Origin: Dictyostelium discoideum
Lineage: Eukaryota
DNA length: 64,000 nt
Assembly: GCA_000004695.1 (NCBI GenBank)
Contig: CM000151.3
Span: forward strand, 6,080,001 to 6,144,000
Direction of reading: 5' to 3'
Every line of letters starts with the position of its first letter. The stretch's first letter is position 1. The notes beneath the pieces were generated by a model, which saw only the letters and a list, made by a program, of their open reading frames with translations, searched no databases and was not told where the DNA came from. The position numbers and the translations under genes are program-made. Shown here one piece after another: positions 6,909 through 64,000 of the stretch.

Positions 6909-7949
6909 ATGTCAAAATATTTCTTTTTATTTATTATTTCAATATTTTTATTTTCAATTTTTGAAACTACCAACTCCCAATCAAGTACTATCTATGTAAT
7001 TCAAACTACTCCAACCTTGTACTCAACCTCATGTTCTTTTAATGTAAAATTTATTTCAAATGTTATCTATACAAATATTTTTGGAACCAATCTTGAGGAT
7101 TGGAGCGTTTCAGATGGTCTTTATAATGTAAATATCTACACTGAACAAGGTCAACAAAATTTATATGTTTGGGGGATTGATTCAAATTCAATTCAATATA
7201 ATCTATTCTTGGGAAATGTAGTATGCTCATCTCCATGTCCAGGTTTAAATGGTCAATGTAATGGAAATGGTCAATGCATTAATGGAGAATGTAAATGTTT
7301 CACTCCATGGAGTGGTAGTGATTGTTTCTTAAATATCACTGAACAATTTGTTTGTAGTTCCGGATGTCAAGGTGATTGTGGTGGTAATGGGGTCTGTAAT
7401 TCCACCAGTATTCCACCAGTTTGTATTTGTAATACTGGTTATTCTGGTACAAATTGTGAAAACATAATTCCAACACCAAATGATAATTTCATCAACTCTT
7501 TAATATTCTTACAAGAAGTTTTACCAAATGGAAAACCATTCTCAAAAATAATTTTCAACGGGTGGGATAAAACCATTGAAACTGCCTACAATGGTATTTA
7601 CTATCACTATAATACAACTATACAAATTGGTCAATTCTCACCAACAATTGAAATCAAAGTAGTTGATTTTTATAATATGTACGACACATTCTCTGTAACT
7701 GGTGCTCTTCAAGTTGAAAGTAGTTTTAATTTTGAAATTAAAATTAGAAACTACCCATTAGAGAACCCATTAAACAATCTTCAATTATTTTTCAACACTC
7801 AAATTAAAGATGGTTGTATGGGTGTTAAAAAAGCAAATACTATTTCCTCTCAAACAATTTATGAAGAATCATTCTTAACTGTTAAAATTGAAAATAGTCA
7901 ATCATCTTTAATGTTTGCTCTTGTTGATTTACTTATTTTTAGTTGTTGA
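6909..7949 (+). CDS. secreted/cell-surface cysteine-rich glycoprotein with two EGF-like modules (CSSPCPGLNGQCNGNGQCINGECKC; CSSGCQGDCGGNGVCN...CICNTGYSGTNC), an N-terminal signal peptide and a hydrophobic C-terminus (possible GPI signal).
   Basis: 346 aa single ORF. Hydrophobic N-terminus MSKYFFLFIISIFLFSIF followed by TNSQS. Cys spacing matches the EGF consensus. Many N-x-S/T sites. Confidence 0.6.
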   Translation: MSKYFFLFIISIFLFSIFETTNSQSSTIYVIQTTPTLYSTSCSFNVKFISNVIYTNIFGTNLEDWSVSDGLYNVNIYTEQGQQNLYVWGIDSNSIQYNLFLGNVVCSSPCPGLNGQCNGNGQCINGECKCFTPWSGSDCFLNITEQFVCSSGCQGDCGGNGVCNSTSIPPVCICNTGYSGTNCENIIPTPNDNFINSLIFLQEVLPNGKPFSKIIFNGWDKTIETAYNGIYYHYNTTIQIGQFSPTIEIKVVDFYNMYDTFSVTGALQVESSFNFEIKIRNYPLENPLNNLQLFFNTQIKDGCMGVKKANTISSQTIYEESFLTVKIENSQSSLMFALVDLLIFSC

Positions 7950-8118
7950 AAAAAAAAAAAAAAAAAAAAAAACCATTATTCCCAATAATATGAAAAATAA
8001 TAAAACAAAATAAACGAATCCAGTTTTTTTTTTTTTTTAAATCAAAAAATAAAAACTGGACCACTTCTCCAAAAAAAAAAAAAATAATAATAATATCCTT
8101 TGGTTTCTTTTCTTTTTT

Positions 8119-8153
<35 letters not shown>

Positions 8154-8222
8154 CATTAAATGTTTTTTTTATTTATTTTATTTACACCACTTTAATTCTA
8201 ATATATATATTGAATCAAAACA

Positions 8223-9011
8223 CTATTGATTTAATAATTTTAAACCTTGAATTATGTCAGGATTTTTTAAAGTTCCTCTTTTATATTCTTCTAAGGATAT
8301 ATAACCATCACCATCATCATCCATTGAATCGAAAAATTCTTCTATTAAATCATGAGGATCAAACTTTTTACCAGAACATGTTACAAATGTTCCAACTAAT
8401 TTATACATGCTCTCTAAAATTGATTCCATCTCTGATCTTGTTATATATCCATTACCATCGATATCATATAATGAAAATGCAACTTTATAAAAAAAAAAAT
8501 AATAAAAAATAAAAAATAAAAAAGTGAGGGTATAATATTAATAAATGATAAATAAATATAATGATAATGATGATGATATTAATAAATAATTTACATTCTA
8601 TTTTCTCCTCTGGAGTACCTCTAGTTATTGAAGACAAACCACATACAAACTCTTGAAAGTTTATTGTTGAATCTTTATTTTTATCGAATACATTAAATAA
8701 TAAATCTTGTAGAAATTGATCACCTACACCCATTTGTGTCATTATCTCTTTAAATTCTTGTTTATTAATAGTTCCAGATGGTGAATCTTTTCTAAACTGT
8801 TTATATAATGCTCTTAATTCTCTAGAATCAACTAATTCATTCTTTTTTGGTTAATTAAATGTTATTGTTATTGTTATTGTTGTTGTTGTTGTTGTTGTTG
8901 TTTTTTTAATGGTCATAAAAACAAAAAAAAAAAAAAAAGACACTTACAATGTGATGAATTTTGAAGGAGCTCTACCTCTTCCTTTTTAAGAGTTCCTAAT
9001 TGATTTCCCAT
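8223..9011 (-). CDS. neuronal-calcium-sensor (NCS-1/frequenin/recoverin family) EF-hand protein, 4 exons. N-terminus MGNQLGT is a candidate N-myristoylation site. EF loops DKNKDSTINFQEF, DIDGNGYITRSEM, DDDGDGYISLEEY. Possibly the D. discoideum ncsA-type gene.
   Basis: Spliced translation ...FLQDLLFNVFDKNKDSTINFQEFVCGLSSITRGTPEEK...AFSLYDIDGNGYITRSEMESILESMYKLVG... aligns with NCS-1 ([47 protein letters not shown]). Confidence 0.7.
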
Positions 9012-42710: not shown

Positions 42711-43588
42711 TCCAACCCAAACAACAAAGGTAAGCATAATTTTTATATGCCCAAAAAAAAAAAAAAAAAAAAAAAAAAAATAAAAGGTATCCAGGGGAAT
42801 TTAAATGATGATCAAAATATATTTGCTATTCTTAGTTATTTATCAATCATGCTGAATGGAAATTTCTGATTTAATCCTCCCTTCATACCTTTATTGGGCC
42901 AATATTTAAATATTCTTTAAATATAATAATACTAATATTTTTCTTTTGAATTATTTAGGTTTTTTTTTTCTCTGATAACAATCCTTGAAATATTTCACAC
43001 TGACAAATGAATTTATTAAATAAAAAAAAAATTTAGTTTTATAAAAAAAAAAAAAGGTTTTCGTGTTTATGATATTTTTTTATTTTTTTTATTTATTTTT
43101 TATTTTTGACTACTTTGTATAATAATTTATTTTATTTCATTTTTTTCTATTTTTAGATTTTTTAAATAATAATTTTTTTTTTTTTTTTTTTTTTTTATAG
43201 AAAAAGAAAATTATTTGATGACTGTATACATATGCAAACAGGCGATATTTAAAAAACAAGAATGGAATTTGGTATCATCACACTTTTTAATTTGTTTTTT
43301 TTTTAATTTTTTTTTAATTTCGACCATCGTTTTTATTTTTATTTTTTTTTTTTTATTTTTTTTTTTATTTTTTTGTGTTTTTCTTGTACAGTCATTCATA
43401 TTAAAAAAATAAAAAATAAAAAATAAAGAAAAACAAAACTATTATACAAATTCGAAACATATCGATAATACAACATAAAACAAATTACCTTTTTTAATTT
43501 TTTTTAATTTTTTTTAATTTTTTTTTTTTTTTTTTATTATTTTTGGAAACTTAAAAATAGTTTATTGCTAATAGTAAAAATATTAATA

Positions 43589-47228: not shown

Positions 47229-47302
47229 GTTCGGATGGTGTAGTCGGTTATCACGAATCCTTAACACGGATTAGGTCGTGGGTTCGATTCCCGCTCTGAA
47301 TA
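47229..47302 (+). tRNA. tRNA-Val (anticodon AAC)
   Basis: Cloverleaf: acceptor GTTCGGA/TCTGAAT, D-arm GTGT..TCAC with GGTTA, anticodon stem AATCC/GGATT with loop TTAACAC, T-arm GTGGG TTCGATT CCCGC. Followed by a T-run. Close to the animal tRNA-Val-AAC consensus. Confidence 0.85.
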
Positions 47303-47352
47303 CAAACTAATGCTTTTATAAAAAAAAATTCTCAATTTGAGTGTGTTCGAGT

Positions 47353-47715
47353 AAAAAAGAAAAAATGAATTTTTTCGATAAACTTAAAGGGATGGGATCT
47401 CAATTCACTAGATATTAGCAAAACAAATAAAAAAGAAAGAATCTACCCAAATTTAATCGGCATAATTATACATCAACTATGGAGAATAATTTGTCACAAA
47501 CTATTCAATCAAGACGAATCTAAAACTCCACCCTCATTTGATCCAACATTAATTGAAAAAGAACTAACCAACTTAATTAAAATAGAGAAATTCATTTTAA
47601 TAAAGAAGATTGAAAGGAATGAAACAATATACAAATTAAATAACAGAGACCAATTAATAATCAACTTCAACACATCATGGCATAACCCGAACACTCCAAA
47701 CCCAATTCCACTATA

Positions 47716-47755
<40 letters not shown>

Positions 47756-50700
47756 AAGTAGTAGTAATCATAATATAACCAAAAATATCAACATATAACA
47801 ATATAAAAATTTAAAAATTTAAAAATCTAAAAATTTAAAAATGTAATAAAATATAACAATACACCGCTTTTAGGTAAAAAAAAAAAAAAAATAAACTTAA
47901 AGGTGAACTCAACTTAGGCGAAGAAGAGTTAATAAAAAAACTATTCAAATAAGGTTATTCTACCCACATACCTTGGAATTAAATAGTAATTAAACAAAAT
48001 TAATAGATAATTTCATAGTTAATGGTACTCTTAACATTGTCAGAAGACAAAAGGGTATAACAGTATTCGGTAGAATACTAAAAGAAAAATTCACATTATT
48101 ACACGAGTGTTACAGCACTTTCAAGTATGAAGATTTCCCACTGCAAAAATTCATACTTTACACCCCAGGATATCACTATGTCCACTTTTACACATTTACA
48201 AAAAACATAATAAAAAAAATAAACAATCAAATGGTAAAAGAAAACTGGGGATTGGAGCCATTACTAATAGATGAATGCAACATAGTAATGCTACCAGATG
48301 TGATTAGATATTCATGCATACTATAATTTAATAAAGAAGATGATATCTCAATCATTAAAACAAACATTGATGCTATAAAAGGTAGTAAGCATCCAATAAG
48401 AGCCTTCATCTCTGAATATAACAATAAAGAAATAAGAGATGTTAGAAAAAAAAAAAACACAAGTAATAAAAACCAACAACCAACAACTACAAATACAACT
48501 AAATCAATACCATCAACTCCACCAACAACTAATGCATCAACAACCACACCAATAACAACCACACCAATAACAACCACACAAACAACAACCACACCAACAA
48601 CAACCACACATCAATTACCAACAAGCAATACAACAATCTACAACCTAAACAAAACTACTACTACTACTACTACTACTACAAAACCTATCAATAAAATTAC
48701 TACAAGCAATGGTACCAAGTTTCCAATTGCCAGTAGTATTAGAAAATAATGGAACAATTAAAATTATTACTATGGAACTGCAGAGGTAATCAATCAACCA
48801 ACGCTAAGAATAAAACAGAAGAAACGATAAAAAGAATTGGCACTCAATTAGCACTCCTAACTGAAACTAATTTCAATGGATTCAACCACCACAAAACAAT
48901 GTTCAACTTTGAAAGAATAGATCATGGTTCAGGTAAAGGAACTGGCATAGCAATAGAAAATAGAGATACAAGAAAAGGCCACATATCAATAAACTTCAAA
49001 GACGATGATGGTAGAATACTATCAATTAAATACAATTCCTTTAATTCTATCAACATATTATTGATCTATGCTCCAGCGACTATATCTGAAAGAAACACCT
49101 TCATAATCAACTCAAAATCACTGTTTAAAAAATATAATTCAATCAACCATCAAATAATAGCAGGCGACTTCAATAACAACCACGATTGCAACAGCTTCTT
49201 CGGTACTGAATTACGTAAAATAATAGACCAAGACATGCTACTAGATACTGGTATTGAAGAAAACACTCCAACATTTCCAAGATCAATGAAGAGACTAGAT
49301 AGAATCTACTGTCATCCAACACTACTAAACCAAAATTCAAAACTGGTAGTCCACAACACAGTATTTAACAAATCAGATCACTTTCCCATCACAATCACAA
49401 TACAAACCAACAGAGAAACAGCAACAACAACAACAACCAAACTAGAAAGACTCCCTTGGACATTATGTAAAGAAATTCTCAACAACAAACATATACATGA
49501 TGGGTTATCAGAATTAATCAGTAAGAACAAAGATAAGATCAAATCAGTGGAGGAATGGACGAAATTTAAAAATAATGTCATCAGAGATTATTTAAAAAAA
49601 GAACAAAACAAAATAAAGAAAGAAAAGAACAAAAGAAAATACGTAATCCACAAATTACTTGGAAATAGTGATATCATTCCAAAGATGAGAAAAGAACTCA
49701 ATGAAGAAATAAGTAGAATATTAGAAGAAGAAAGAAAGGTAAAAGCATGGGATATCAAATTAAAACTCCACCTGCATCAAGAAACACCAAGCAAATACCT
49801 CACAAGTATCCTTAAATCCAGAGCCAAAGATAAATCAATATTCCAAATAAAAGATAAAGATAATAAGACCATATCAGATAAAGAGAACATAGCAAAAAGA
49901 TTTGTTGAATTCTATCAAGATCAATATGAAGAGAAAGAAGATAACGAAGAAACCCACAAGAAGTTATTAGAAAAATGGGAAGTAGACGTTGATTTAATCA
50001 AGAAACTCGAGATAGACAGACCGATAAGAATACATGAAGTGACCAAAGCAATCAAAACTTCAAGTATCCACAAATCTCCAGGTTTAGACGGTATCAATGC
50101 ACTATTCTACAAGTACCACATCAACTCAATAGCAAGAATATTGACTATAGCTTTCAACGACCTCCTCACAAATAAGAAAGAAATCCCCACAAAATTCAAA
50201 GAAGGAGTAATAACAACAATATTCAAAAAAGGAGATGAACTAAACATTTCAAATAGAAGACCAATCACCCTTCTCAATACAGATTACAAAATTTTAAGCA
50301 AAATTCTCAACAGTAGATTATTAGATATCACCAGTAAAATTATCAACAAATTTCAAAACGGCTTTGTTCCAAACAGGTTCATCCAAGACAATATTCAGAT
50401 CATGAAGGAAGTAATAGAAATAAGTAACAAAAGAAAGAACAATACACTCATTACCTTTTACGATTTTAACAAAGCATTCGATTCAATCAGCCACAAGAGT
50501 ATCACAAGAACATTAGAGCATATTGGTATCCCCCCAAAATTCACAGCGATCCTACTAAACCTACTCAAAGATACTAAAAACAAAATAAAGATCAACGAAT
50601 TTTTAGTCAATGGAATAACAATCAGAAGAGGAACAAAACAAGGAGACCCAATATCACCAACAATCTTTGCTCTAGTTTTAGAACCACTTCTAATATATAT

Positions 50701-51658
50701 CATCAATGATAATACAATCAAAGGCTTCACTTTACCAAATTCCAAATCATTAAAACTCACTGCATTTGCTGACGACATAGCAACATTTACAAACTCCACT
50801 GAAGAACTAATGAAAATTAATACTAAAATCCAAAAGTACTGCTCAGCAACATCATCATCGTTAAACAAAGAGAAAACAGTAATGATAGCAATAGGAGATA
50901 AACCACACGATCTACCATTCCAAGAGAGTACAGTCCCAGAAAGATATCTTGGCCTCAATTTCACCAAAACAGGTTTAAATTCAAAATACAACACTTTAAT
51001 CCAAGAAATGAAAAACAATCTAATCAAATGGAAATCACAAGCAATAACGATGAAGGCAAAGATGACAATTCTCAAAACATACGTTCTATCCAAATTAACA
51101 TACCATCAATACATGGATAATCTAAATGAAGAACAAATTGAGGAAATCAATAACATGACCAGATGGTTCTTATTCTCCTCAGTTAAGAATACATATACAG
51201 AAGAGAGAAAATACAAAACTATGATGAAAATAGACAGAGCATATGCAGATTGGAAAGAAGGAGGCATAAAATTATGGGATATAGAACTAAGACATATAGC
51301 ATTCAAAATCTGGTACATGAACAGGCTACTCCATAACAACTACAACAACAACAACAATACCTTACAAGAATGGTACATGGAGCAATTAAGTAGAAAAAAA
51401 GCCCCCACTTCAACCCTCAACGATATGTACAGACACTGGGGTGTATTCAGAGTCAAATTTTACCAAAACCATCCAAAGATAAATGAACATAGAAACAGAA
51501 TTACTAAATCTCATCGAAACTGAAAAATTCATCACACTAAAGAAAATCAAACACGACGAAGCAATACTAAAAAACACCAATCAAGATCTTCACAAATACA
51601 AATTCAACAAAGCCTGGCAAACCCCAGCAGCTCCGAACCCTCTTCCAATTTAAGTAGT

Positions 51659-51709
<51 letters not shown>

Positions 51710-51825
51710 GTTTAAAAAATTTAATACAATTGAATAATAAAAATAAAACCGTTTAACAAACACCGCCGAAAAGACACAAGGACATTCCTTGAAGGTCTGA
51801 TCACAGGTAAAAAAAAAAAAAAAAA
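47353..51825 (+). mobile_element. non-LTR (LINE-like) retrotransposon inserted ~50 bp downstream of tRNA-Val, TRE3-type (tRNA-gene-targeted retroelement). Flanked by the 14-bp target-site duplication GAGTGTGTTCGAGT (47339..47352 and 51826..51839). Ends in an oligo(A) tail. ORF1 region 47760..48745 is degenerate.
   Basis: The TSD is read directly. Intact ORF2 with APE endonuclease + RT. The 5' region 47400..47720 is similar to the element's own 3' end (B-module-like duplication). Position downstream of a tRNA gene. Confidence 0.75.
48749..51523 (+). CDS. retrotransposon ORF2: apurinic-type endonuclease + reverse transcriptase (924 aa). The C-terminal Cys-rich region has been lost by internal deletion relative to the fragment copy at 52440..53160.
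   Basis: LLWNCRGN... EEP endonuclease N-terminus. RT motifs NRRPITLLNTDYKILSKIL, FVPNRFIQDNI, ITFYDFNKAFDSISH, FADD. Confidence 0.8.
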   Translation: MEQLKLLLWNCRGNQSTNAKNKTEETIKRIGTQLALLTETNFNGFNHHKTMFNFERIDHGSGKGTGIAIENRDTRKGHISINFKDDDGRILSIKYNSFNSINILLIYAPATISERNTFIINSKSLFKKYNSINHQIIAGDFNNNHDCNSFFGTELRKIIDQDMLLDTGIEENTPTFPRSMKRLDRIYCHPTLLNQNSKLVVHNTVFNKSDHFPITITIQTNRETATTTTTKLERLPWTLCKEILNNKHIHDGLSELISKNKDKIKSVEEWTKFKNNVIRDYLKKEQNKIKKEKNKRKYVIHKLLGNSDIIPKMRKELNEEISRILEEERKVKAWDIKLKLHLHQETPSKYLTSILKSRAKDKSIFQIKDKDNKTISDKENIAKRFVEFYQDQYEEKEDNEETHKKLLEKWEVDVDLIKKLEIDRPIRIHEVTKAIKTSSIHKSPGLDGINALFYKYHINSIARILTIAFNDLLTNKKEIPTKFKEGVITTIFKKGDELNISNRRPITLLNTDYKILSKILNSRLLDITSKIINKFQNGFVPNRFIQDNIQIMKEVIEISNKRKNNTLITFYDFNKAFDSISHKSITRTLEHIGIPPKFTAILLNLLKDTKNKIKINEFLVNGITIRRGTKQGDPISPTIFALVLEPLLIYIINDNTIKGFTLPNSKSLKLTAFADDIATFTNSTEELMKINTKIQKYCSATSSSLNKEKTVMIAIGDKPHDLPFQESTVPERYLGLNFTKTGLNSKYNTLIQEMKNNLIKWKSQAITMKAKMTILKTYVLSKLTYHQYMDNLNEEQIEEINNMTRWFLFSSVKNTYTEERKYKTMMKIDRAYADWKEGGIKLWDIELRHIAFKIWYMNRLLHNNYNNNNNTLQEWYMEQLSRKKAPTSTLNDMYRHWGVFRVKFYQNHPKINEHRNRITKSHRN

Positions 51826-51847
51826 GAGTGTGTTCGAGTTTATTTGT

Positions 51848-51886
<39 letters not shown>

Positions 51887-52327
51887 AGTAGTTGGTGTAA
51901 AAAGCCTTAAATAAGGCTAAAAATTTTAGAATTGTAATGATTCACCATATTAAAACTAATATGGATTTATGTATTGACATAATTAATATGGAAATCATAA
52001 GAACCATAATATAATTCAGTTACTAGTCATAACCAACTTAAAAGGTTTGCCGTTAACAATAAATAATATTAAATAATAACTGACTTTAGAAGGCTAATCC
52101 TGTTACTCAAAATATTAATATAAATACTCTAAAAATATTAAATAAAAATCATTGTCTTTTCTTTACTATCTTAAATATACAAATAAACTATTAATCTCTT
52201 ATTTGTTTATCTTATCATTGTAATTATATATTAATTTTAATAAACCATTTTTTTTTTTTTTTTTTTTTTTTGAATTGGATTTTAATAAACCACTTCAGCT
52301 GATTTAAATTAGTATCCATAGAAATCG

Positions 52328-52399
52328 TCCTTGTTGGTCTAGTGGTGAGGATTTTCGCCTGTCACGCGAAAGGCCCGGGTTCAATTCCCGGACAGGGAG
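52328..52399 (+). tRNA. tRNA-Asp (anticodon GUC)
   Basis: TCCTTGTTGGTCTAGTGGTGAGGATTTTCGCCTGTCACGCGAAAGGCCCGGGTTCAATTCCCGGACAGGGAG is near-identical to the eukaryotic tRNA-Asp-GTC consensus. Followed by TTTTTT. Confidence 0.9.
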
Positions 52400-52439
52400 C
52401 TTTTTTGGAAGATTTCAAAATTCCTTGTTAAATTTTATA

Positions 52440-52998
52440 TTAACCAATTCCGCAGCATTTCTCACCAAAAAGGTAGAAACACCCTCTTCAGATTCTTCTC
52501 AAGATCACTTCCAGGTATCAACCACGAAAGAGACACCAGATGCAAGATCTGTGGCCACCTATTCAGAGACCCTTATTCTCACCTCTTCACTCTATGCCAA
52601 GATATCCTAGATATTGAAAAAACCATCATATCAACAGTTAACAAATTATCATTCATCAAAATCCACAGATGGTCAATGGATACCTTAGACATATCAAAAT
52701 ACAACAGAACTGAGAGAATCTTCCCCAATCTCATAGGAATAATAGCACACCAATTATGGAAGATAATCTGTCACAAATTGTTCAACACTGATGAAAGCAA
52801 ACCAGAGCCAAAATTCGAACAAAAGGTCATAGAAACAGAATTACTAAATCTCATCGAAACTGAAAAATTCATCACACTAAAGAAAATCAAACACGACGAA
52901 GCAATACTAAAAAATACAAATCAAGATCTTCACAAATACAAATTCAACAAAGCCTGGCAAACCCCAGCAGCTCCGAACCCTCTTCCAATTTAAGTAGT

Positions 52999-53047
<49 letters not shown>

Positions 53048-53160
53048 GTTTAAAAAATTTAATACAATTGAATAATAAAAATAAAACCGTTTAACAAACA
53101 CCGCCGAAAAGACACAAGGACATTCCTTGAAGGTCTGATCACAGGTAAAAAAAAAAAAAA
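52440..53160 (+). mobile_element. 5'-truncated copy of the same retroelement family as 47353..51825 (ORF2 C-terminal Zn-finger-like CKICGHLFRDPYSHLFTLCQD + 3' UTR + oligoA), located ~40 bp downstream of tRNA-Asp
   Basis: 52800..53160 is essentially identical to 51481..51825. It also carries a segment deleted from the full-length copy. Confidence 0.7.
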
Positions 53161-53964
53161 ATTAACCAATTCCGATTAATCATCTACACAACAAAGTTTG
53201 CCCCATTTGCAACAATGAAATGAATAATGATCCCTACGGTCATTTGTTTTTCAATTGTCAGCACACAATCAACTTCATTAACCACGACAAATTAAAATAT
53301 TTTATATATAAAAATTGCAATGGAAACAAAAACTGGTCACTAACAAAAAACCAAACAACAAAATTATACACACTCATCTATAAACCACAAACAAACAACA
53401 AAGCATTTAAACCAGATCCAACTATCAATATTAATTTTCATTTTGCAGAAAACGCACAATATAAAAAATACAGGTTCAACTGGAATTATATAAACACAAA
53501 TCTTGATCTAGTCAGAACACATGCATATTGGAACATAATCTCATTAGTTATTCACCAAATATGGATATGGTTATGCAAATCATTATTTGACATCAATATA
53601 ACTCAATCAATTGTTAATTGGAACAACCAAATTAACAACACAACACTAGATTATGATATATTAAAATCAAAATGGCACAAGCTAATAAGATTGGAATATT
53701 CAAGAACTTTATCAAACTTTAACCAATACTCAATTAAAAACAACCTCACAAAAACTCAAAAAGAAACCCAATGGTCCGAAACCATCAAAAAATTTAAAAA
53801 AGAATGGAGCATAAACACTAATGAACCAATTCCAACAATTACACCACCAATTAATTATTAATTACCTAATCTAAAATAACATACCATTTTAAATTCACAA
53901 AAACTAAAAAACCTAAAATAAATAAATAAAAATAACATACTAATTGTATACTACAATAGTTTAT

Positions 53965-53990
<26 letters not shown>
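53161..53990 (+). mobile_element. 3' fragment of a second retroelement family (ORF2 C-terminus ...CPICNNEMNNDPYGHLFFNCQHT... + 3' UTR + oligoA), abutting the preceding fragment
   Basis: Near-identical to 57763..58575 of the downstream full-length copy, but without that copy's premature TAG. Confidence 0.7.
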
Positions 53991-53996
<6 letters not shown>

Positions 53997-56900
53997 GAAA
54001 TAAACGAGAATTTATACATATAAAAAATAAATCACTGTTATATCTTCAGTATGTTGCGTTTAAAAGTTACATTATAACATATCATCTAATTGATCACACA
54101 CACAACATTGTTGATCAAAAGATCGAACAACCATCTGGTATCACAAGATATATCAAAGCTGCAACACGTAGTGTCACTAAACACAAAATTCAACATGCAA
54201 AAAATGCAGATATGGCAACAACTATAAAAAATGCTATCACAAACCCAAACATGAACAAAAACAATCAACCACCAAAAAACAACATTAACACCCCACCAAT
54301 CAACGAAATTGCAAATTCCAATCGCAATAATAACCCACTTCAAAATAGTGGTTCAAAAGCTACACTAAATGAATCACTTGATATTACCAATCAATCCCAA
54401 AACAATAATGAAATATCACACAAAAGTTATTCTCCAAATAATAATAACGGGAAAAACTCATTATCAATGAGCAATCCAACCGATCCAACAATTGTACCAC
54501 AAAAACCTCTACAATCTCAACCAAACAAACCAAGTGCATCAACCCCAAATACAATAAATACAAGAAGAAGCAGCAATGCCCTGACTACACAACCAGTCAA
54601 TACTGGTGCTACCAAACCTAGTAAGGTATGAGCTCAAAAATCAACTTTATAACATGGAATTGTAAAGGATTCACTGAAAACCCAAACAATCAACACAATT
54701 CCTACCAAAAAGCTGTTGACACACTACAACTACTTATATCAAAACTTCCACCTCGTCCAACAATCTCAATACTCACTGAACTCAATTCATCACCATTACA
54801 ACTTAAACATGATTTTCCCGATCACATCATCTCTGTCACCAAACGAGGAAATGGTGTAATCATCATTAACCATAACCCAAACTCACTCAAACTCAAACAC
54901 ATATCAACAATTGATGGTAGAGCTATTTTAGCAGACGTTATATTTCCAAATCAATTACCAATTGGTATTCTTGGAATTTACGCACCAGTATCAAATAATA
55001 CCATCAAAAAGAATTCATATGCAACTTCACTACAAACACTTCTCCACAACCACTCAACAAACCCAATACCAAACCAATCCCAACATGTATCTATTATCTC
55101 AGGAGATTTCAACTGTATCCACAACGACAATTCACTATTAGATGATATTATCCAATCCTACACATACCAACACCATCTAATTGATCAAGGTGAATTTAAA
55201 AACACTCCAACTCATACACATGGTAACAGATTAGATAGAATATATACTCAATACAATAGAATAGACCCTGAAAATATATATACTCAAGTCCACCAAATTC
55301 CATCTTCATTATCAGATCATAATCCAATATCAACAACAATTTCTTCACCTTTTCAAATAAATAAACATAAGAAAAGATGGATATTATCACCTGGTACTAT
55401 AAATGACCATGAAGCAATCAATATTATCAATCATTTAATAACTAATCACAATAACACATCAATCAATCAATTTACAAACTGGTCAAAAGTAAAATCAAAA
55501 ATTATTAAAACTCTAAAAAACTATCAATATAACAAAGACAAACAAACCCAACGTGCAAAACAAATACTATTAGAAAAAGCAGCAAAATTCAAACATCTTG
55601 AAGAACAATGCATCGCCGAATACAATATTATATGTAACAAAAACAAATTACATCAAAACCACACAAACATATTAAAAAAACATATAAATGGAGAAATACC
55701 TAGCAAGTATCTATCAGCAATACTAAACAAAAGATCAAAAGATGCAAAAATTGAATCAATCCAATATGGTAACATCATTACATCCGACCCCGACCAAATT
55801 GAAAATGCATTTGTTGAATTCTACACAAATCTATATAGCTTACAAATATGTTGTCCAATTACTCACCAGCTCATGCTAAACACATGGTCCATCATAAAAA
55901 ATGAATATTGGAATGGTTTAGACTCACCATTTATACAAGATGAAGTTGAAGCTGCAATTAAAACCTGTTACCCCAACAAATCACCCGGTCCAGATGGCGT
56001 TACAAATGCATTCTACATTAATCATTTAAACCAAGTTAAACCAATTCTCACTGCATTATTCAACGATATACTAGAAAATCCTCACCACATCACAACAGAA
56101 TTCACCGAAGGTCTTATACACACAATATACAAGAAAGGCAACCCCTTACTCATATCAAATCGTCGTCCCATTACACTTCTAAACACTGATTACAAGATCC
56201 TCTCAAAAGTAATCAATGCACGTCTTCTGAGAATACTTCCTTTCATCATCAATAACAACCAAACTGGTTTCGTACCCCACAGATTCATCATAGACAACAT
56301 CATCAACATCAATGAATTAATCAACTACCTCAAATCTAAAAACCTCCCTGGTATCATCACACTATTTGACTTCTTTAAAGCATTTGATTCTATCTCTCAC
56401 GATAGTATTAAAAGAACATTAATTCATATGGTATACCAATAAAATTAATAAATTTAATCCACAAGCTATTATCTGACTTACAAGCAAAAATTTCAATTAA
56501 TGGTAAAACAACCAGAAAATTCGATATTAAAATAGGTGTAAAACAAGGTGACCCAATCTCAGCCACTTTATTTGTAATTGTAATTGAAATATTAGCAAGA
56601 ACAATAAATGCAGACAATTCAATAATTGGTTTACCAATTTCACCCAATCCACAAATTAAAATCAAATTTACCCAATTTGCAGACGACTCTACAACATACA
56701 ACATCAACTACGAACAACAACAACAATCAATCAAACATTTCGATAATTTCTGCGCTTCAACATCATCATCATTAAATTTTGACAAAAGTGCAATAATAGA
56801 AATCAACCCCCACAAAATCACTGATAAACACATAATAAACAATATTCCACAATCAAAAAGAATACCAATAACCAAAAAAGATCAATCAGAAAGAGTCCTT

Positions 56901-58579
56901 GGCTATTTCTTTAATCATAATGGTTTACATAGGAAATTACCAGAAACAATGAAAACATTGAATAAATCATTAGTACTATGGAAAACTAGTGGCACAACAT
57001 TAAAAACAAAAACAACCATCATAAACACCTACTCACTATCACCAATAACATATTTATCATACCTTGAAGAATTTACAAAAGATGAAGAAATTCAAATTAA
57101 TAAATTAATCTCATGGTTTATGAATTCTCCCGCAAATTCTGAATCACCAACTCTCAATACCAATTCCATTGAAAATAACACATCAACCATCCATTCACGT
57201 GCAAAAATACCTTTGATGTGTTATGATAGATCATTAAAACCATTAAAAGAAGGTGGTTGGGGTATGTGGAATATACAATTACGACAAGTTGCTCAAAAGA
57301 TTTGGATATACAACAGATTTTTACAAATGCATAAATCTGCAAATAATTCAATATACATGATAAGTTGGATGGATCAAATCATCAACAAATCAATCTCTTC
57401 TCCATACCTTATAAAAATCAAAAAAGAATGGGAAAACTATGCAACTCAAATTGGACATCTAAAAGATAAAGTTCAAATCCTACAACCAATATTAATAAAA
57501 AATCAAACCTCTCAAACATTAAACACAAATAATATTCCACTACCACCAACACTCAAAGAAATCTACTCGACAATACTCAACAATCACCAATGTAAATCAA
57601 AAGACTATATTGGCAAGAAATATTCAGATCTACTTCTTACTTCGCACCAACCATCAATACAACTATTATGGAAATACACATACGACCAACTATTTGTCAA
57701 AATTCAAAAATTAAAAGATCCAAAAGGCCGTGATACAATGCAAAGATTCCATGCTAGATGTCTTCCGATTAATCATCTACACAACAAAGTTTGCCCCATT
57801 TGCAACAATGAAATGAATAATGATCCCTATGGTCATTTGTTTTTCAATTGTTAGCACACAATCAACTTCATAAACCACGACAAATTAAAATATTTTATAT
57901 ATAAAAATTGCAATGGAAACAAAAACTGGTCACTAACAAAAAACCAAACAACAAAATTATACACACTCATTTATAAACCACAAACAAACAACAAAGCATT
58001 TAAACCAGATCCAACTATCAATATTAATTTTCATTTTGCAGAAAACGCACAATATAAAAAATACAGGTTCAACTGGAATTATATAAACACAAATCTTGAT
58101 CTAGTCAGAACACATGCATATTGGAACATAATCTCATTAGTTATTCACCAAATATGGATATGGTTATGCAAATCATTATTTGACATCAATATAACTCAAT
58201 CAATTGACAATTGGAACAACCAAATAAACAACACAACACTAGATTATGATATATTAAAATCAAAATGGCACAAGCTAATAAGATTGGAATATTCAAGAAC
58301 ATTATCAAACTTTAACCAATACTCAATTAAAAACAACCTCACAAAAACTCAAAAAGAAACCCAATGGTCCGAAACCATCAAAAAATTTAAAAAAGAATGG
58401 AGCATAAACACAAATGAACCAATTCCAACAATTACACCACCAATTAATTATTAATTACCTAATCTAAAATAACATACCATTTTAAATTCACAAAAACTAA
58501 AAAACCTAAAATAAATAAATAAAAATAACATACTAATTGTATACTACAATAGTTTATTTATATCAAAAAAAAAAAAAAA
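53991..58579 (+). mobile_element. full-length but inactivated copy of the second retroelement family (ORF1 54212..54631; ORF2 from 54628, disrupted by a frameshift near 56435 and a CAG>TAG nonsense at ~57850; oligoA at 58565..58579)
   Basis: The ORF1 stop and ORF2 start overlap (ATGA). EN + RT motifs (NRRPITLLNTDYKILSKVINARLL, FVPHRFIIDNI, ITLFDFFKAFDSISH). The RT continues in another frame after 56442. Confidence 0.7.
54628..56442 (+). pseudogene. ORF2 (endonuclease-RT) of the second element, truncated by a frameshift. The remaining RT/C-terminal segments lie at 56443..57854 in another frame.
   Basis: Compare HMVYQ* at 56442 with the continuation YGIPIKLINL...GVKQGDPISATLF... in another frame. 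Confidence 0.65.
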
Positions 58580-59432
58580 GGGATCATTTGTAAAAAATTT
58601 GTTAAATTACAAATAAGAATAATTGGAATAATTAAAAAAAAAAAAAAAAAAAAAAAAAAGGGATTTGATTTAATATTCTTAAAAAAGAAAAAAAAAAAGT
58701 ATAAATTAAAATTTATTTTTAATTTTTTTTTTTTTCATTACACCATTAAATCTTGTTTATTTGTGAATATAAAAAATTATTTTAATTAATCCTTTCACCA
58801 GTAGTACTCTTATTTTTATTTATTTATTATTTTTATTATTATTTCTCAATCAAATAATTTATAAAAAAAAAAAAAAAAAACCTAAATATTTAATTAAGAA
58901 TTCTTTTTATTTATTATTTTTATTATTATTTCTCTATCAAATAATTTTAAAAAAAATACTCTTTAAATTAATAATTATGATTAAAAAAAGAATTTTTTTT
59001 CCCGCACCCCTTTACCATTTTCTTATTTTAGATATTTCCAGATTTGGAAATTTTCTTTTTGGTTATTGGATTTTACTTAAAATAGAAAATTATTTTTTTT
59101 ATTTCCAAATAATTCAAAAAAATTGAAAAATGATCGAGTATAAATAAGAGTTTTTTGAAAAAAAAAAAAAAATAATCATTTATACAAATGTAAAAAAAAA
59201 ATAATAAAGAGAATAAAAATCTAACTCTAACAATTTAAAAGGTTTAGATAATAGTTGATTGACAGTTAAAAATATAAAAAAAGGTAAAGCCATAAAAAAT
59301 GAAAAATAAATAAATAACAATTTAAATCTAACTTTTATATTATATTTTATAGTAATTTTAGACAATAAAAATGGTTAAAATTCAATTATAATCTAGATAA
59401 TATAATATATGAATCACTACCAATCGAATGAT

Positions 59433-59566
59433 AGAGAAAGGAAAGATTTATCTATGCACTATATCATAAAGAAAGGTTGATCATCATCTAAAAATTATTT
59501 CTAAACAAATAAAATGAATCAATTCAAATCAAATGTCAGAGAAAGGAAAGATTTATCTATGCACTA
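59433..59566. repeat. 29-bp perfect direct repeat AGAGAAAGGAAAGATTTATCTATGCACTA (59433..59461 and 59538..59566) in the 3' flank of the acyltransferase gene
   Basis: Direct reading. Confidence 0.8.
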
Positions 59567-59717
59567 AGGCATTTTGAAAAGAAGATGATATAAATAAAAA
59601 ATTAGAAATCAAAAAAAACTAAAAATAAATTAAAACCAATAATAAAATTAAAAAGGTTTAATATATTTTAAAATTAAATTTTTTTTAATAATTTAAATTA
59701 TAAGATAAGCTACTTTT

Positions 59718-60764
59718 TTATTTAATTTTTCCAAATGTTTTAATTAACAAATCATTAGACTTTAAAAAATTAGTTTTAAAATCTTGAGAAATTGCAGTGA
59801 AAAATTGATGATTACAATTGTCATTATTTTCTTTTGAAAGTTTTTTAATATCTTTTTCAACTGGTATTAATGAAAAAATAAAAGGTGATATTTCAACCAA
59901 AACAATTGGTCTATTTACATTTAAACAACTATTAGTTTCATAGATTTGATTTGTTACTTTACCTAGATTAACTGGAGAACGAGCAATATGAAAAAGAAAT
60001 TCTGCATTAAAATCTTGAGTTTTCTTATTATATAATTTTGCAGTTGAACATGATATATTTGGAATTTCAGGTTCAAATGATTGAAATGATAATTGTTTAA
60101 AATCATTTTCAACTGGATCGATATCTGATGTATGAAAATTAATTAAACCTTCAATACAATGAAATCGGATTTCATTTTTAGATAAATAACAAATTAATTG
60201 ATCGATTTCATTTTGATCACCAGCCACCAATATTAAATCATAGCATAAACAACCACAAATTTGAATTGATGGATAATTTGGTTTAATAAAATCCCAATAA
60301 TAATCTTCAGGTTTTTTAATGGATATTATTTTCTTTATTGTTTTATTTTCAAGTTTTGTCATTAAACATGCTCTTTTATGGGAAATGAAACAAGCGGTTT
60401 CCAAATCGATTAAACCTGAACAATAAGCTGAAGCAATCTCTCCTAAACTCATACCAACTATTTGATCTGGTTTTACACCATAATGTTTATAAAGTTTAAA
60501 AATTGAAACTTGAAACATAAATGATATACAATGAATAAAATGTTGTTCTAGAAATGAATCACTATCATTCTCTTTAAGATTTTTATATTTATCAAACATT
60601 GAATATCCATAATATTTTTCATTAAAAATATTATCAATTTCCATTATCGTTGATTTAAAATTATTTCCATTTTCAAATAATTCTAATGGTATTTTATTTT
60701 TAAATGAACCTTGACCAGAAAATATAAATACTAAATATGGTTTTGTTATTTTATTTTCTTCCAT
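59718..60764 (-). CDS. stand-alone acyltransferase (malonyl-CoA:ACP transacylase / PKS AT-domain-like) protein, 348 aa, intronless. Motifs FSGQGS, GMSLGE (His of GHSLGE replaced by Met) and FHTS.
   Basis: MEENKITKPYLVFIFSGQGSFKNK...IVGMSLGEIASAYCSGLIDLETACFISHKRA...LINFHTSDIDPV has AT-domain block order and spacing. Confidence 0.7.
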   Translation of the reverse strand: MEENKITKPYLVFIFSGQGSFKNKIPLELFENGNNFKSTIMEIDNIFNEKYYGYSMFDKYKNLKENDSDSFLEQHFIHCISFMFQVSIFKLYKHYGVKPDQIVGMSLGEIASAYCSGLIDLETACFISHKRACLMTKLENKTIKKIISIKKPEDYYWDFIKPNYPSIQICGCLCYDLILVAGDQNEIDQLICYLSKNEIRFHCIEGLINFHTSDIDPVENDFKQLSFQSFEPEIPNISCSTAKLYNKKTQDFNAEFLFHIARSPVNLGKVTNQIYETNSCLNVNRPIVLVEISPFIFSLIPVEKDIKKLSKENNDNCNHQFFTAISQDFKTNFLKSNDLLIKTFGKIK

Positions 60765-61359
60765 TTAAAATTTTAATTATTATTATATTTATATTAAGTA
60801 TGTCTGTGTGTTTATGTAAGTGAAAAAAAATAAAAAAAAAATAAAAAAAAATAAAAATAAAAATAAAAATAAAAATAAAAATAAAAAATAAAAATAATAA
60901 AAAATAAAAATAAACACAACGTAATGTAATAAAAAAAAAAAAAAATTACAAGTCAAAAGTAATAATTAAAATTAATAAAATTTAATTCATTATTTTAAAA
61001 ATAAAATAATTATAAAAATTAATGAATCTGTTTTAAAAAATATCTAGATATCTTATTATTATTTACTTATTATTGTTTTTCCCAATGGGAATTTCTTTAG
61101 GTTAATAGAAGAAATTCTATTTAAATATAATAAAAATAGAACAAAACTGTTTTTTAAAAAAAAAAAAAAAAAAGAGATGATTTTCTAAAGATTTTTTTAT
61201 TTTCTTTTTGCTTCATAAAAAAAACAAAAAAATTCTTTTTAAGATATTTTTCTCATTTTCTTTTTTTATTTTTATTTTTTTTTTTTACTTTTTGATTAAT
61301 TTTTTTTTTTTTTTCCTAAACCGTAATTTTATTTGAAAGTGAAAAAAAAAAAAAAAAAA

Positions 61360-62516
61360 ATGATTTCAGGTATTGAAGAAGATATAAAAGAAAAACCATT
61401 TGTTGTGTTTTTTTTTTCAGGTCAAGGTGGAATTCATAATAAATTAGCAGTCGAATTATATGAAAAAGAACCAGTTTTTAAGAAATGGACTGATGATATT
61501 GATAATATTTTAAAAGAGAAATATTATGGATATTCGATGATTGAAAAATTAAAATCAATAAACGATGATGATAGAGAAGCATTATATGATCAACATCTTG
61601 CTCATTCAATTTTATTTATATTACAAATTTCATTATTTAAATTATATAAACATTATGATGTAACTCCTGATATAATTTATGGTTTAAGGTATTATTTAAT
61701 TTGAAAAAATATAATAAAAATAATAATACTTTTTTTTTTATTTTAAATTTTATATTAATTAATATAATATTTAATAATTATTATTTTAGTTTAGGTGAGA
61801 TTGCATCATCATATTGTTCTGGAATGATTGATTTAGAAACAGCATGTTTTGTTTTATATTCAAGAGCAGTATCAATTAATAAAACATTTAAAGAATATGA
61901 TAGAACATTGGTATCAGTTGATATTTCAGAAGAAAATTTCAATTCAAAATATAGTTTAAAATTCCCATCAATTGAAATTGCTTGTAAAATTCATGCTCAT
62001 ACCATTACATTGGGTGGGAAAATTACAGATATTAATCAACTATTTGAATTGTTTGATATTGATAATGTCAGTTATAAAAGATTACCAATTGCATCAAGTT
62101 TTCACACTTCTTCTATGGAATCTATTAGGGAAGAAATTCTTAATTTATCATTCGATTATTCTCAACCTACTATTACTCATTTTTCAACAGTAACTTGTAA
62201 ACCATTTGATATCAAAACCCAACCATTTAATTCATTTTATCTTTATAATAATATTCGTGAGCCATGTCTATTGGAAGAATCAACAAAAAATATTTATTTA
62301 TTTCATTTAAATAATAATAATTTAAATTATGATAATAATAACAATAATTATAAAAATAATGAATATAATTATGACAATATTGATAAATTAACAAATCAAA
62401 AAAAATATAACCAATCAAAAAAACCAATATTTATAATAGAAATATCTGCGCAATACTCTTTAATTTATTTTATTGAGAAAACAATATATGAATTATCAAT
62501 CAAATATAATGATAAA

Positions 62517-62559
<43 letters not shown>

Positions 62560-62663
62560 TTAATAATAATAAATTTTTATCTACCTTGTATAGAGACAAA
62601 AATGGAGATTTAAATACATTTAAAAATGTAATATCAAATATTAAAGAGGTTTACAAAAACTAA
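61360..62663 (+). CDS. paralogous stand-alone AT-domain-like protein (exon1 61360..61688, intron GTATTA...TTTTAG, exon2 61790..62663). The intron splits the G-L|S-LGE active-site motif. C-terminal Asn/Tyr-rich tail.
   Basis: FFFSGQGGIHNK...IIYGL/SLGEIASSYCSGMIDLETACFVLYSRA...ASSFHTSSMESI. Divergently oriented to the 59718..60764 gene. Confidence 0.65.
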
Positions 62664-63297
62664 TAATTATATTAAGTTTTGACAACAGCCACACAGAAGG
62701 AGAGATAGGCAGATACAGAAGCAGAGAGAGAGAAGATTATGGGTTATTTTGGGTAGAAGGGATAGAGGGGGTAGAAATTTTAATATTACTGGGCTATTCA
62801 TTAATAAAAAAAAAAAAATAAAAAATTTGTTATGTTTTAAAAATTATTTTTAATTTGTCAGTGTTTTTAAACAGATTTTTTAAAAAATAAAAACAATATC
62901 ACTGATATCAGTGGTTCATTAAAAAAAAAAAAAAAATTTTTTTTTTTTTTTAATTTTTAATCTAAAAAGATTAAATAGTGGGAATTTATTGTATTTTTTG
63001 ATTTTTTTATTTAAATTTATTATTTTAAAAATATATTTAATAAATCTTTTTTTTAAAATTTTAAATTATCATTTTTTATTTTTATTTTTTTTTTTTTTTT
63101 TTTAATTTTTATACTTGCACATAAAAAAAACAAAATAAAATAAAATTAAATTTAATCTTCATTAATTAATTTATTTAATTAACAAGTAAAGAAATAAAAA
63201 AAATAACAAGTAAGAAAAAAAAAAAAATTCAATCATCATATAAAAAAAAAAAAATTCTAACATATCAAAAATAATTATAATAAATTTTAAAAAAATT

Positions 63298-64000
63298 ATG
63301 GAAGAAATTTTATTTCCAACCAAATCACCACATATTACATTTATGTTTACTGGTCAAGGATGTTGTTTTCCAAAAATGGGTCTTGGTTTATATAATAGTG
63401 AACCAATATTTAAAGAATGGATTGATAGAATTGATGAAATTTTAAAATCAAAATATTATGGTTATTCAATGTTTGAAAAAATTAATTCAATTGATGAAAA
63501 AGATCAAGATGGATTAAACAATCAACATTTATCACATTCTGCTTTATTCATGTTTGAAGTTTCTCTATGTAAATTATTAAATTATTATGGTTTACATCCA
63601 AATTTAATAATTGGTATAAGTTTGGGTGAAATCGCATCAGCATTTTGTTCTGGTATGATTGATTTAGAGACATCATGTTTTTTAACCTATAAAAGGGCAT
63701 TCTCAATTGAAAAAACCATTAATGGTGATAGTACATTAATTATAGTTGCAATTTCTGAAAATGAATTTTTAAATAATTATTCATTGAAATATACAAATAT
63801 TGAAATTGCAAGTAACCTTACATCATCATCATTATTAGTGGGTGGTAAAAAAAATGATTTACTTTCATTTTGTCAAGAATTAAAAGAAAAGAAAATATTT
63901 TTCGCTCAAACCTCATTACCAACTTCATTTCATACATCAAGTATGGAACCAATTAAAAATGATATAATTCAATTAACAATTAATAATCAGTCACCTAAAA
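63298..64000 (+). CDS. third paralogous AT-domain-like protein, truncated by the window end (MEEILFPTKSPHITFMFTGQGCCF...IIGISLGEIASAFCSGMIDLETSCF...PTSFHTSSMEPI)
   Basis: Same motif set (TGQG, GISLGE, FHTS) as the two preceding genes. Confidence 0.65.
   Translation, partial: MEEILFPTKSPHITFMFTGQGCCFPKMGLGLYNSEPIFKEWIDRIDEILKSKYYGYSMFEKINSIDEKDQDGLNNQHLSHSALFMFEVSLCKLLNYYGLHPNLIIGISLGEIASAFCSGMIDLETSCFLTYKRAFSIEKTINGDSTLIIVAISENEFLNNYSLKYTNIEIASNLTSSSLLVGGKKNDLLSFCQELKEKKIFFAQTSLPTSFHTSSMEPIKNDIIQLTINNQSPK

Follow-up and report, generated by a model that had tools for sequence, protein, structure and literature searches.

The two neighbouring tRNA genes in a 64-kb window of Dictyostelium discoideum DNA (contig CM000151.3, positions 6,080,001 to 6,144,000; the window means this whole stretch) are both followed by TRE elements, which is a confirmed observation, and the region is almost certainly a graveyard of TRE3-type non-long terminal repeat (non-LTR) retrotransposons, in which at least five separate insertions were aimed at these two genes. 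Exactly two tRNA genes, tRNA-Val(AAC) and tRNA-Asp(GUC), were found in the 64 kb by both ARAGORN and Rfam, and they lie on the plus strand 5.1 kb apart, in agreement with the original prediction for this DNA, which had placed the same two genes about 5 kb apart on one strand. Behind them are five pieces of three families, all in the orientation of the tRNA genes, which make up all the TRE3-type sequence of the window. Each of the five ends in a poly(A) tail, none has LTRs, three are truncated at the 5′ end, and all are defective, so that not one of the five is intact. Three exact pairs of target-site duplications (TSDs) of 13–14 bp were identified, and each of these strings is present only twice in the window, exactly at the boundaries of homology. 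Moreover, the architecture, the host and the downstream, co-oriented position of the elements all match the TRE3 type that had been proposed from their downstream placement, and the TRE3 interpretation is supported.

Host DNA and element families

The GC content of the window is about 20%, and a rise to about 30%, together with an A- and C-rich strand, is confined to 48–58 kb, the stretch occupied by the elements. A dictyostelid host is indicated by the C/D-box small nucleolar RNA (snoRNA) DdR17 (Table 1), by the top protein matches, all of which are from Dictyostelium, and by the 99.8% nucleotide identity of 49694–64000 (14.3 kb, most of the array) to the D. discoideum assembly GCA_054883475.1 (locus L002). 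This second assembly also bears on the explanation that the nested and tandem array is an artefact of repeat collapse or chimeric joining. Repeats of 98–99% identity are indeed hard to assemble, but the identical array with its junctions stands in the separate assembly, and either a TSD or unique flank borders every junction, unlike in a misassembly, so an artefact is exceedingly improbable.

Pfam detected Exo_endo_phos (APE) and RVT_1 domains in the long open reading frames (ORFs) at 48749–51523 and 54628–56442, and thus the description of the elements as LINE-like, with an APE endonuclease and a reverse transcriptase, holds for both. ORF2 overlaps ORF1 in the −1 frame, the overlaps being TAATG and ATGA. 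In addition, a CCHC-like zinc knuckle, C-x2-C...DPY-HLF..C (C-x2-C...H-x4-C), is carried by intact relatives and by the tRNA-Asp fragments at 52453–53160 (Family 1) and 53170–53996 (Family 2). Protein searches provided an intact or nearly intact ORF2 reference for each family (P0001 for Family 1, P0007 for Family 2 and P0005 for Family 3), and these were mapped onto the window by tblastn. The mapping separates three families where the original prediction had two; Families 1 and 2 are real, and Family 3 had been overlooked. P0001 is an intact ORF2 of 1147 amino acids (aa), 99% identical to the Family 1 element behind tRNA-Val (element 1 in Table 1). P0005 (DDB_G0269266) is a 1099-aa ORF2 in AX4 with 59% identity to P0001, and P0007 (DDB_G0291958) has 1275 aa and 33–34% identity to P0001 and P0005. 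Family 3, at this 59% ORF2 identity, is the sister lineage of Family 1. Exact-protein look-ups with the 924-aa ORF2 of the window, P0007, P0005 and the Family 2 ORF1 remnant found no record. Families 1 and 3 have an unusual 3′ end in common (51654–51825 and 52994–53160 in Family 1, 47717–47890 in Family 3), where an internal A-tract of about 36–40 nt lies within about 10 nt of the ORF2 stop and is followed by a terminal module of about 110–120 nt, which contains ACACCGC and ends in AGGT and the true poly(A).

The pile behind tRNA-Val

Element 1 is bounded by a perfect 14-bp TSD, GAGTGTGTTCGAGT, which had already been noticed in the original prediction and which is present in the 64 kb only at 47339 and 51826, exactly bracketing the element; the chance of a 14-nt match at a fixed pair of positions is about 2e-7 when the base composition is considered. 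The 5′ end of the element lies 12 nt ahead of the ORF1 ATG at 47365 (MNFFDKLKG...). After 26 nt the Family 1 ORF1 switches to Family 3 sequence and later resumes, and this inserted sequence is a 500-bp, 5′-truncated 3′ fragment of Family 3 that contains the last ~107 codons of ORF2, the 3′ untranslated region (UTR) and poly(A). Its assignment is clear from tblastn, with 96% identity to P0005 (aa 990–1099) versus 56% to Family 1. The fragment has its own 13-bp TSD, ATAAACTTAAAGG, found in the window only at 47378 and 47891, and since this TSD is Family 1 ORF1 sequence, the Family 3 fragment is a later insertion into element 1.

Element 1 is dead. In comparison with the Family 1 copy at the locus L001 (described below), its ORF1 is broken by one 1-nt deletion, which causes a frameshift, and by two nonsense changes. 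Its ORF2 (48749–51523) is 99% identical to P0001 over aa 1–913; aa 914–1093, and with them the zinc knuckle, have been lost through a frame-shifting 539-bp deletion at 51487/51488, beyond which a C-terminal remnant is left at 51489–51650. The 3′ UTR has the internal A-tract, and the poly(A) ends at 51825. An uninterrupted T34 tract (51850–51883) starts 10 nt past the right TSD of element 1; a direct repeat flanking this tract was looked for and not found.

The pile behind tRNA-Asp

The tRNA-Asp gene is directly followed by a T6 terminator. The first piece behind it is a 5′-truncated Family 1 copy. It starts within ORF2 at about aa 970 and runs on to aa 1147, a stretch that contains the zinc knuckle, then through the 3′ UTR and poly(A), and it is 97% identical to P0001 in tblastn. 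In a self-comparison, 51488–51823 and 52828–53161 are 98.8% identical, which ties this copy to element 1 as Family 1. The second piece is a 5′-truncated 3′ fragment of Family 2 (ORF2 aa 1046–1275, 3′ UTR and poly(A)), and the third is a long Family 2 copy; 53170–53986 and 57763–58579 in these two are 98.65% identical. The order given in the original prediction, namely truncated Family 1, Family 2 3′ fragment and long Family 2 copy, is therefore borne out. ATTAACCAATTCCG, the 14-bp TSD that brackets the truncated Family 1 copy, is present in the window only at 52439 and 53161. Of its 14 nt, 9 come from the tRNA flank, and the last five, TTCCG, are those with which the Family 2 fragment begins (see ...CTTCCGATTAATC from 57763 onward for comparison). 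Because this TSD spans the junction of flank and fragment, the truncated Family 1 copy is younger than the Family 2 fragment, and among the pieces at tRNA-Asp it is the youngest.

The long Family 2 copy had been taken for full-length, and this did not stand. It keeps 52 nt of the authentic 5′ region (53997–54048, GAAATAAACGAG...CTTCA), as seen by comparison with the copies at other loci, and it is without about 20 nt of the canonical 5′ tip (AAAAAAACCGAAAAAACAAA). An internal deletion of about 0.7 kb, corresponding to 3922 to about 4625 of the locus L005, has removed the start of ORF1, of which 54212–54631 is left. ORF2 begins at 54628 in the −1 frame with the ATGA overlap; loss of 1 nt near 56428 has shifted its frame, and a CAG-to-TAG change at 57852 has given it a premature stop. 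The poly(A) ends at 58579.

Two small structures lie at the edges of this pile. Directly after the Family 2 poly(A), 58580–58664 consists of GGGAT, 49 nt (CATTTGTAAAAAATTTGTTAAATTACAAATAAGAATAATTGGAATAATT), A26 and again GGGAT; it might represent one more very small poly(A) remnant, bounded by a short TSD, and matches no family seen here. Upstream of tRNA-Asp, 52248–52278 (T24 plus GAATTGG) lies between two copies of a perfect 14-bp repeat, ATTTTAATAAACCA. It is possibly an extremely 5′-truncated poly(A) retroelement on the minus strand, the 7 nt being too few to assign a family. Its target, at −49 to −36 of tRNA-Asp, corresponds to a TRE5-type position and orientation, and thus tRNA-Asp may have been hit from both sides.

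Table 1. Positions in the window of the tRNA genes, the retrotransposon pieces with their target-site duplications, and other features
Feature	Positions	Strand	Evidence
DdR17, D. discoideum C/D-box snoRNA	42802-42871	+	Rfam, 101 bits, full length
tRNA-Val(AAC)	47229-47303	+	ARAGORN; Rfam tRNA 57.9 bits; internal B box GGTTCGATTCC starts 47281
Left TSD copy of element 1, 14 bp	47339-47352	.	Exact 14-mer match
Family 1 TRE3-type element 1	47353-51825	+	Protein mapping, Pfam, junction reading
Left TSD copy of nested Family 3 insertion, 13 bp	47378-47390	.	Exact 13-mer; Family 1 ORF1 sequence
Nested 5′-truncated Family 3 3′ fragment, 500 bp	47391-47890	+	tblastn, translation
Right TSD copy of nested Family 3 insertion, 13 bp	47891-47903	.	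Exact 13-mer match
Right TSD copy of element 1, 14 bp	51826-51839	.	Exact 14-mer match
Candidate minimal poly(A) retroelement remnant	52234-52292	-	ATTTTAATAAACCA only at 52234, 52279 in window
tRNA-Asp(GUC)	52328-52400	+	ARAGORN, Rfam, B-box scan; internal B box GGTTCAATTCC starts 52378
Left TSD copy of truncated Family 1, 14 bp	52439-52452	.	Exact 14-mer match
5′-truncated Family 1 copy	52453-53160	+	tblastn vs P0001, self-comparison
Right TSD copy of truncated Family 1, 14 bp	53161-53174	.	Exact 14-mer match
5′-truncated Family 2 3′ fragment	53170-53996	+	99% aa identity to P0007; self-comparison
Long Family 2 copy	53997-58579	+	Protein mapping, comparison with L005, L006, L007 copies

Distances to the tRNA genes and B boxes

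The first element nucleotide lies 49 nt (element 1) and 87 nt (nested Family 3 fragment) past the 3′ end of tRNA-Val, and 52 nt (truncated Family 1 copy) and 47 nt (original 5′ junction of the Family 2 fragment) past that of tRNA-Asp, close to the 40–50 bp downstream, co-oriented starts proposed for the first elements behind each gene (49 nt measured at tRNA-Val and 47–52 nt at tRNA-Asp). The targets themselves start 35 (element 1), 38 and 74 nt past the tRNA 3′ ends, with the fourth junction at 47 nt. When mapped from the first base of the internal B box, the target starts are at 58 nt (element 1) and 61 nt for Family 1 and at 97 nt for Family 3. TRE3 elements are known to insert 40–150 bp downstream of tRNA genes and with matching orientation, relative to an internal or external B box (PMC5911963), and the published range across the families is 14–305 bp downstream (PMC5006619 Table 1); the distances in the window fall inside both ranges and thus fit TRE3. 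GTTCGAG inside the TSD of element 1 was considered as an external B box and rejected, having 3 mismatches to GGTTCRANYCC. We infer that target choice in these elements may depend on the B box and on RNA polymerase III (Pol III) transcription factors (TFIIIC), a dependence that has been shown experimentally only for TRE5-A, the targeting of which requires the B box and TFIIIC/TFIIIB (PMC5911963).

Copies at other loci

TSDs are not restricted to the window, as they were also found at L001, L005, L006, L007 and L008, with lengths of 10–18 bp outside the window; their recurrence in other copies had been named in the original prediction as a point on which it depended. A Family 1 copy with an 18-bp TSD starts 89 nt past tRNA-Phe(GAA) at L001 and has a good external B box ahead of it. 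The tRNA-Lys(UUU) gene at L005 is followed by a tandem of two Family 2 copies, with the first element nucleotide 48–70 nt past the gene and a 17-bp TSD around the proximal copy; moreover, a 16-nt Family 3 tail with its own 12–13-bp TSD lies between the two. The complete Family 2 element of this locus has 5294 bp without poly(A). Another Family 2 tandem is present at L006, where the distal copy has a 12-bp TSD. At L005 (3811–3870, 9158–9250), the left TSD of the proximal Family 2 copy is separated from the canonical 5′ tip by 22 additional nt, and these include a perfect B box, GGTTCAAATCC. The extra nucleotides may stem from 5′ transduction, with a source copy that sat behind an external B box, or they could reflect a more complex history.

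Two further lineages were met at these loci. At L001 (1–4612, 5838–8603), an element represented by P0008, with 31–35% ORF2 identity to the window families, lies about 1.2 kb upstream of tRNA-Phe in opposite orientation; this is the arrangement expected of a TRE5-type element, for which it is a candidate. L008 (1542–6815) holds a tandem of copies that belong to P0088, a fourth family not represented in the window; P0088 is 40% identical to Family 2 and likewise shows the DPYGHLF zinc-knuckle signature. One of these copies has 5231 bp without poly(A) and a 10-bp TSD, TAATGCATAA. No tRNA gene adjoins the visible P0088 copies at L008.

Orthologous loci without the array

Orthologous loci were fetched by means of the flanking acyltransferase gene (59718–60764, minus strand) from a diverged D. 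discoideum assembly with about 90% nucleotide identity in the flanks (L009) and from D. cf. discoideum (L010). The tRNA-Val gene and the neighbouring genes are kept in both, and tRNA-Asp is also kept in L009, where the spacing of the two tRNA genes is 1.1 kb, compared with 5.1 kb in the window. No sequence of the three families is present in the orthologous loci L009 or L010, and therefore the array is a lineage-specific addition. The spacer between tRNA-Val and tRNA-Asp in L009 (about 7900–8420 of the reverse complement) has terminal inverted repeats of about 70 bp, a structure like a miniature inverted-repeat transposable element or a DNA transposon, which is not present in the window. The empty site behind tRNA-Val would be expected to read ...CAATTTGAGTGTGTTCGAGTTTATTTG..., and that inside an uninterrupted Family 1 ORF1 ...GATAAACTTAAAGGTGAACTC....

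Sequential insertion and its alternatives

Insertion in this superfamily proceeds by target-primed reverse transcription from a nick made by the APE endonuclease. At these loci, the nicked DNA would serve as primer for copying the polyadenylated element RNA by reverse transcription, the TSDs of 13–14 bp would result from a second, staggered nick, and incomplete reverse transcription would leave the 5′-truncated copies. The insertions recur at a nearly constant distance from the tRNA genes. Since the landmark is the tRNA gene and not the local sequence, later insertions land at the same distance, and consequently new copies fall in or ahead of older ones, which are pushed downstream, with the proximal pieces being the younger ones. 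Behind tRNA-Val, Family 1 came first and Family 3 then nested in its 5′ end, and behind tRNA-Asp, the long Family 2 copy was probably the first, followed by the Family 2 fragment and then by the Family 1 fragment. For two of the four relative orders, the content of the TSDs demonstrates which insertion came later, as these TSDs lie within or across earlier insertions, and the repeated re-targeting of the same tRNA gene claimed in the original prediction is thereby upheld. For the two Family 2 pieces, neither of which has a TSD, the order is an inferred one. TRE tandems arising from sequential targeting have been described before (PMC5006619, Additional file 1, note to Table S2).

Several observations weigh against such a history. 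Neither the Family 2 fragment nor the long Family 2 copy has a recognisable TSD, and the poly(A) of the fragment runs straight into the 5′ sequence of the long copy, itself about 20 nt short of the tip, so that an additional assumption is needed for this junction, for example a target-site deletion. The same features would be expected if the two Family 2 pieces were left by one rearrangement, either unequal recombination or a local duplication or deletion in a former tandem of two complete elements, and head-to-tail Family 2 tandems such as those at L005 and L006 could be substrates for recombination. However, the members of those tandems have TSDs of their own, which means that sequential insertion does yield such arrangements, and a 5′-truncated insertion with a target-site deletion accounts for the junction equally well. 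Furthermore, the two pieces differ at about 11 positions over the shared 790–817 bp, and where they depart from a consensus of six copies (at 4 and 5 positions, too close to rank their ages), each difference is private to one piece, which fits independent copies and at least argues against a recent duplication. We therefore consider the rearrangement unlikely and prefer separate insertions.

Also on the contrary side, no canonical external B box was found at up to 2 mismatches downstream of either tRNA gene of the window, unlike at L001 and L005, which have one behind the tRNA gene, and thus the external B box route of the literature is not evident here. Moreover, the Family 2 copy at L007 (1044–7460), which has an 11-bp TSD (ATCATCATTTC), has no tRNA gene within the 11-kb locus. 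In addition, neither GAGTGTGTTCGAGT nor TTAACCAATTCCG nor any of the flank strings is present in L009 or L010: although TRE-free orthologous loci were found, the exact empty-site string was not recovered from them, since the flanks are too diverged and align too poorly overall for the empty sites to be read base by base. As a separate observation, the L007 copy abuts a ketoacyl-synthase gene model and has a B-box-like GATCGATTCT about 70 bp upstream of the insertion.

The L007 copy would suit generic, untargeted LINE-like elements that came to lie near tRNA genes by chance or through the tolerance of AT-rich intergenic DNA, and the very AT-rich intergenic DNA of D. discoideum is a plausible sink for them. 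Against this stand four independent junctions within 35–87 nt downstream of the only two tRNA genes, all in the tRNA orientation; with a target of about 200 bp in 64 kb, the probability of four such chance hits is roughly 1e-11. Copies elsewhere are likewise found behind tRNA-Phe (L001) and tRNA-Lys (L005), and the published censuses count tens of copies per TRE3 family at 14–305 bp downstream of tRNA genes (PMC5006619 Table 1). Untargeted insertion hence deserves hardly any credence, and insertion aimed at the tRNA genes is the reading that we follow.

Relation to known elements

Four TRE3 families have been described in D. discoideum (Spaller et al. 2016, PMC5006619): Dd_TRE3-A (5229 bp, 67 copies, 14–228 bp downstream of tRNA genes), Dd_TRE3-B (5279 bp, 43 copies, 34–188 bp), Dd_TRE3-C (4734 bp, 29 copies, 14–305 bp) and Dd_TRE3-D (a partial consensus of 1559 bp, 11 copies, 49–285 bp). 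Family 2 is probably TRE3-B, in view of its length, of a GenBank record in its ORF2 cluster and of a neighbouring gene. The full-length element has 5294 bp, compared with the published 5279 bp; the cluster holds AAD43057.1, ‘pol’ [D. discoideum], 100% identical to DDB_G0291958, among names that are nearly all ‘hypothetical protein’; and DDB_G0291686, which is annotated as ‘TRE3-B ORF2’ (PMC12405889), has a gene number adjacent to that of the Family 2 member DDB_G0291688. The evidence for all the letters is indirect. By elimination, abundance and length, Family 1 is probably TRE3-C, its reconstructed length being about 4.5 kb compared with the published 4734 bp, and Family 3 is possibly TRE3-D. 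From length only (5231 versus 5229 bp), the P0088 family is probably TRE3-A.

While TRE3-D has been published only as the partial consensus, Family 3 has near-complete ORF2s in public data, and apparently intact Family 3 ORF2s of 1147–1149 aa are present in read-derived public assemblies. It is conceivable, though somewhat doubtful, that Family 3 is the published TRE3-D, which has thus far been without an intact copy; if this is true, a complete and possibly still active TRE3-D exists in some strains.

The elements of the window do not differ in kind from TRE3 (TRE3-A/Tdd-3, -B, -C and -D), with which they share the host, the poly(A) non-LTR structure, two overlapping ORFs and sequential tandems, except that all copies here are defective. 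TRE5 (TRE5-A/DRE) is a related non-LTR lineage with the same domain order that also targets tRNA genes, but it inserts about 50 bp (37–95 bp) upstream in opposite orientation, whereas the five pieces here are downstream and co-oriented, and only the 31-nt remnant at 52248–52278 fits the TRE5 geometry. The dictyostelid Skipper-2 (DGLT-P) has converged on a comparable target range downstream of tRNA genes (PMC5006619); however, Skipper-2 belongs to the Ty3/gypsy LTR elements and has an integrase and a chromodomain, and neither LTRs nor an integrase are found here. The yeast elements Ty3 and Ty1 likewise find safe places to land in a compact genome at genes transcribed by Pol III, but they are LTR elements that insert upstream of tRNA genes through contacts of the integrase with TFIIIB or Pol III and not by target-primed reverse transcription downstream.

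The phenomenon itself, namely TRE3 with its downstream preference and its tandems by sequential targeting, is already established in D. discoideum, and thus the array has little import beyond annotation. It is nevertheless a tidy illustration and a possible teaching example, in which the order of events can be read from three TSD pairs, two of which lie inside or straddle older insertions, and these pairs show that the landmark is the tRNA gene and not the local sequence. Furthermore, since the array is absent from two related genomes, one of them a ‘D. discoideum’ lineage diverged by about 10%, the locus could be used as a datable presence/absence marker of TRE3 activity among D. discoideum lineages.

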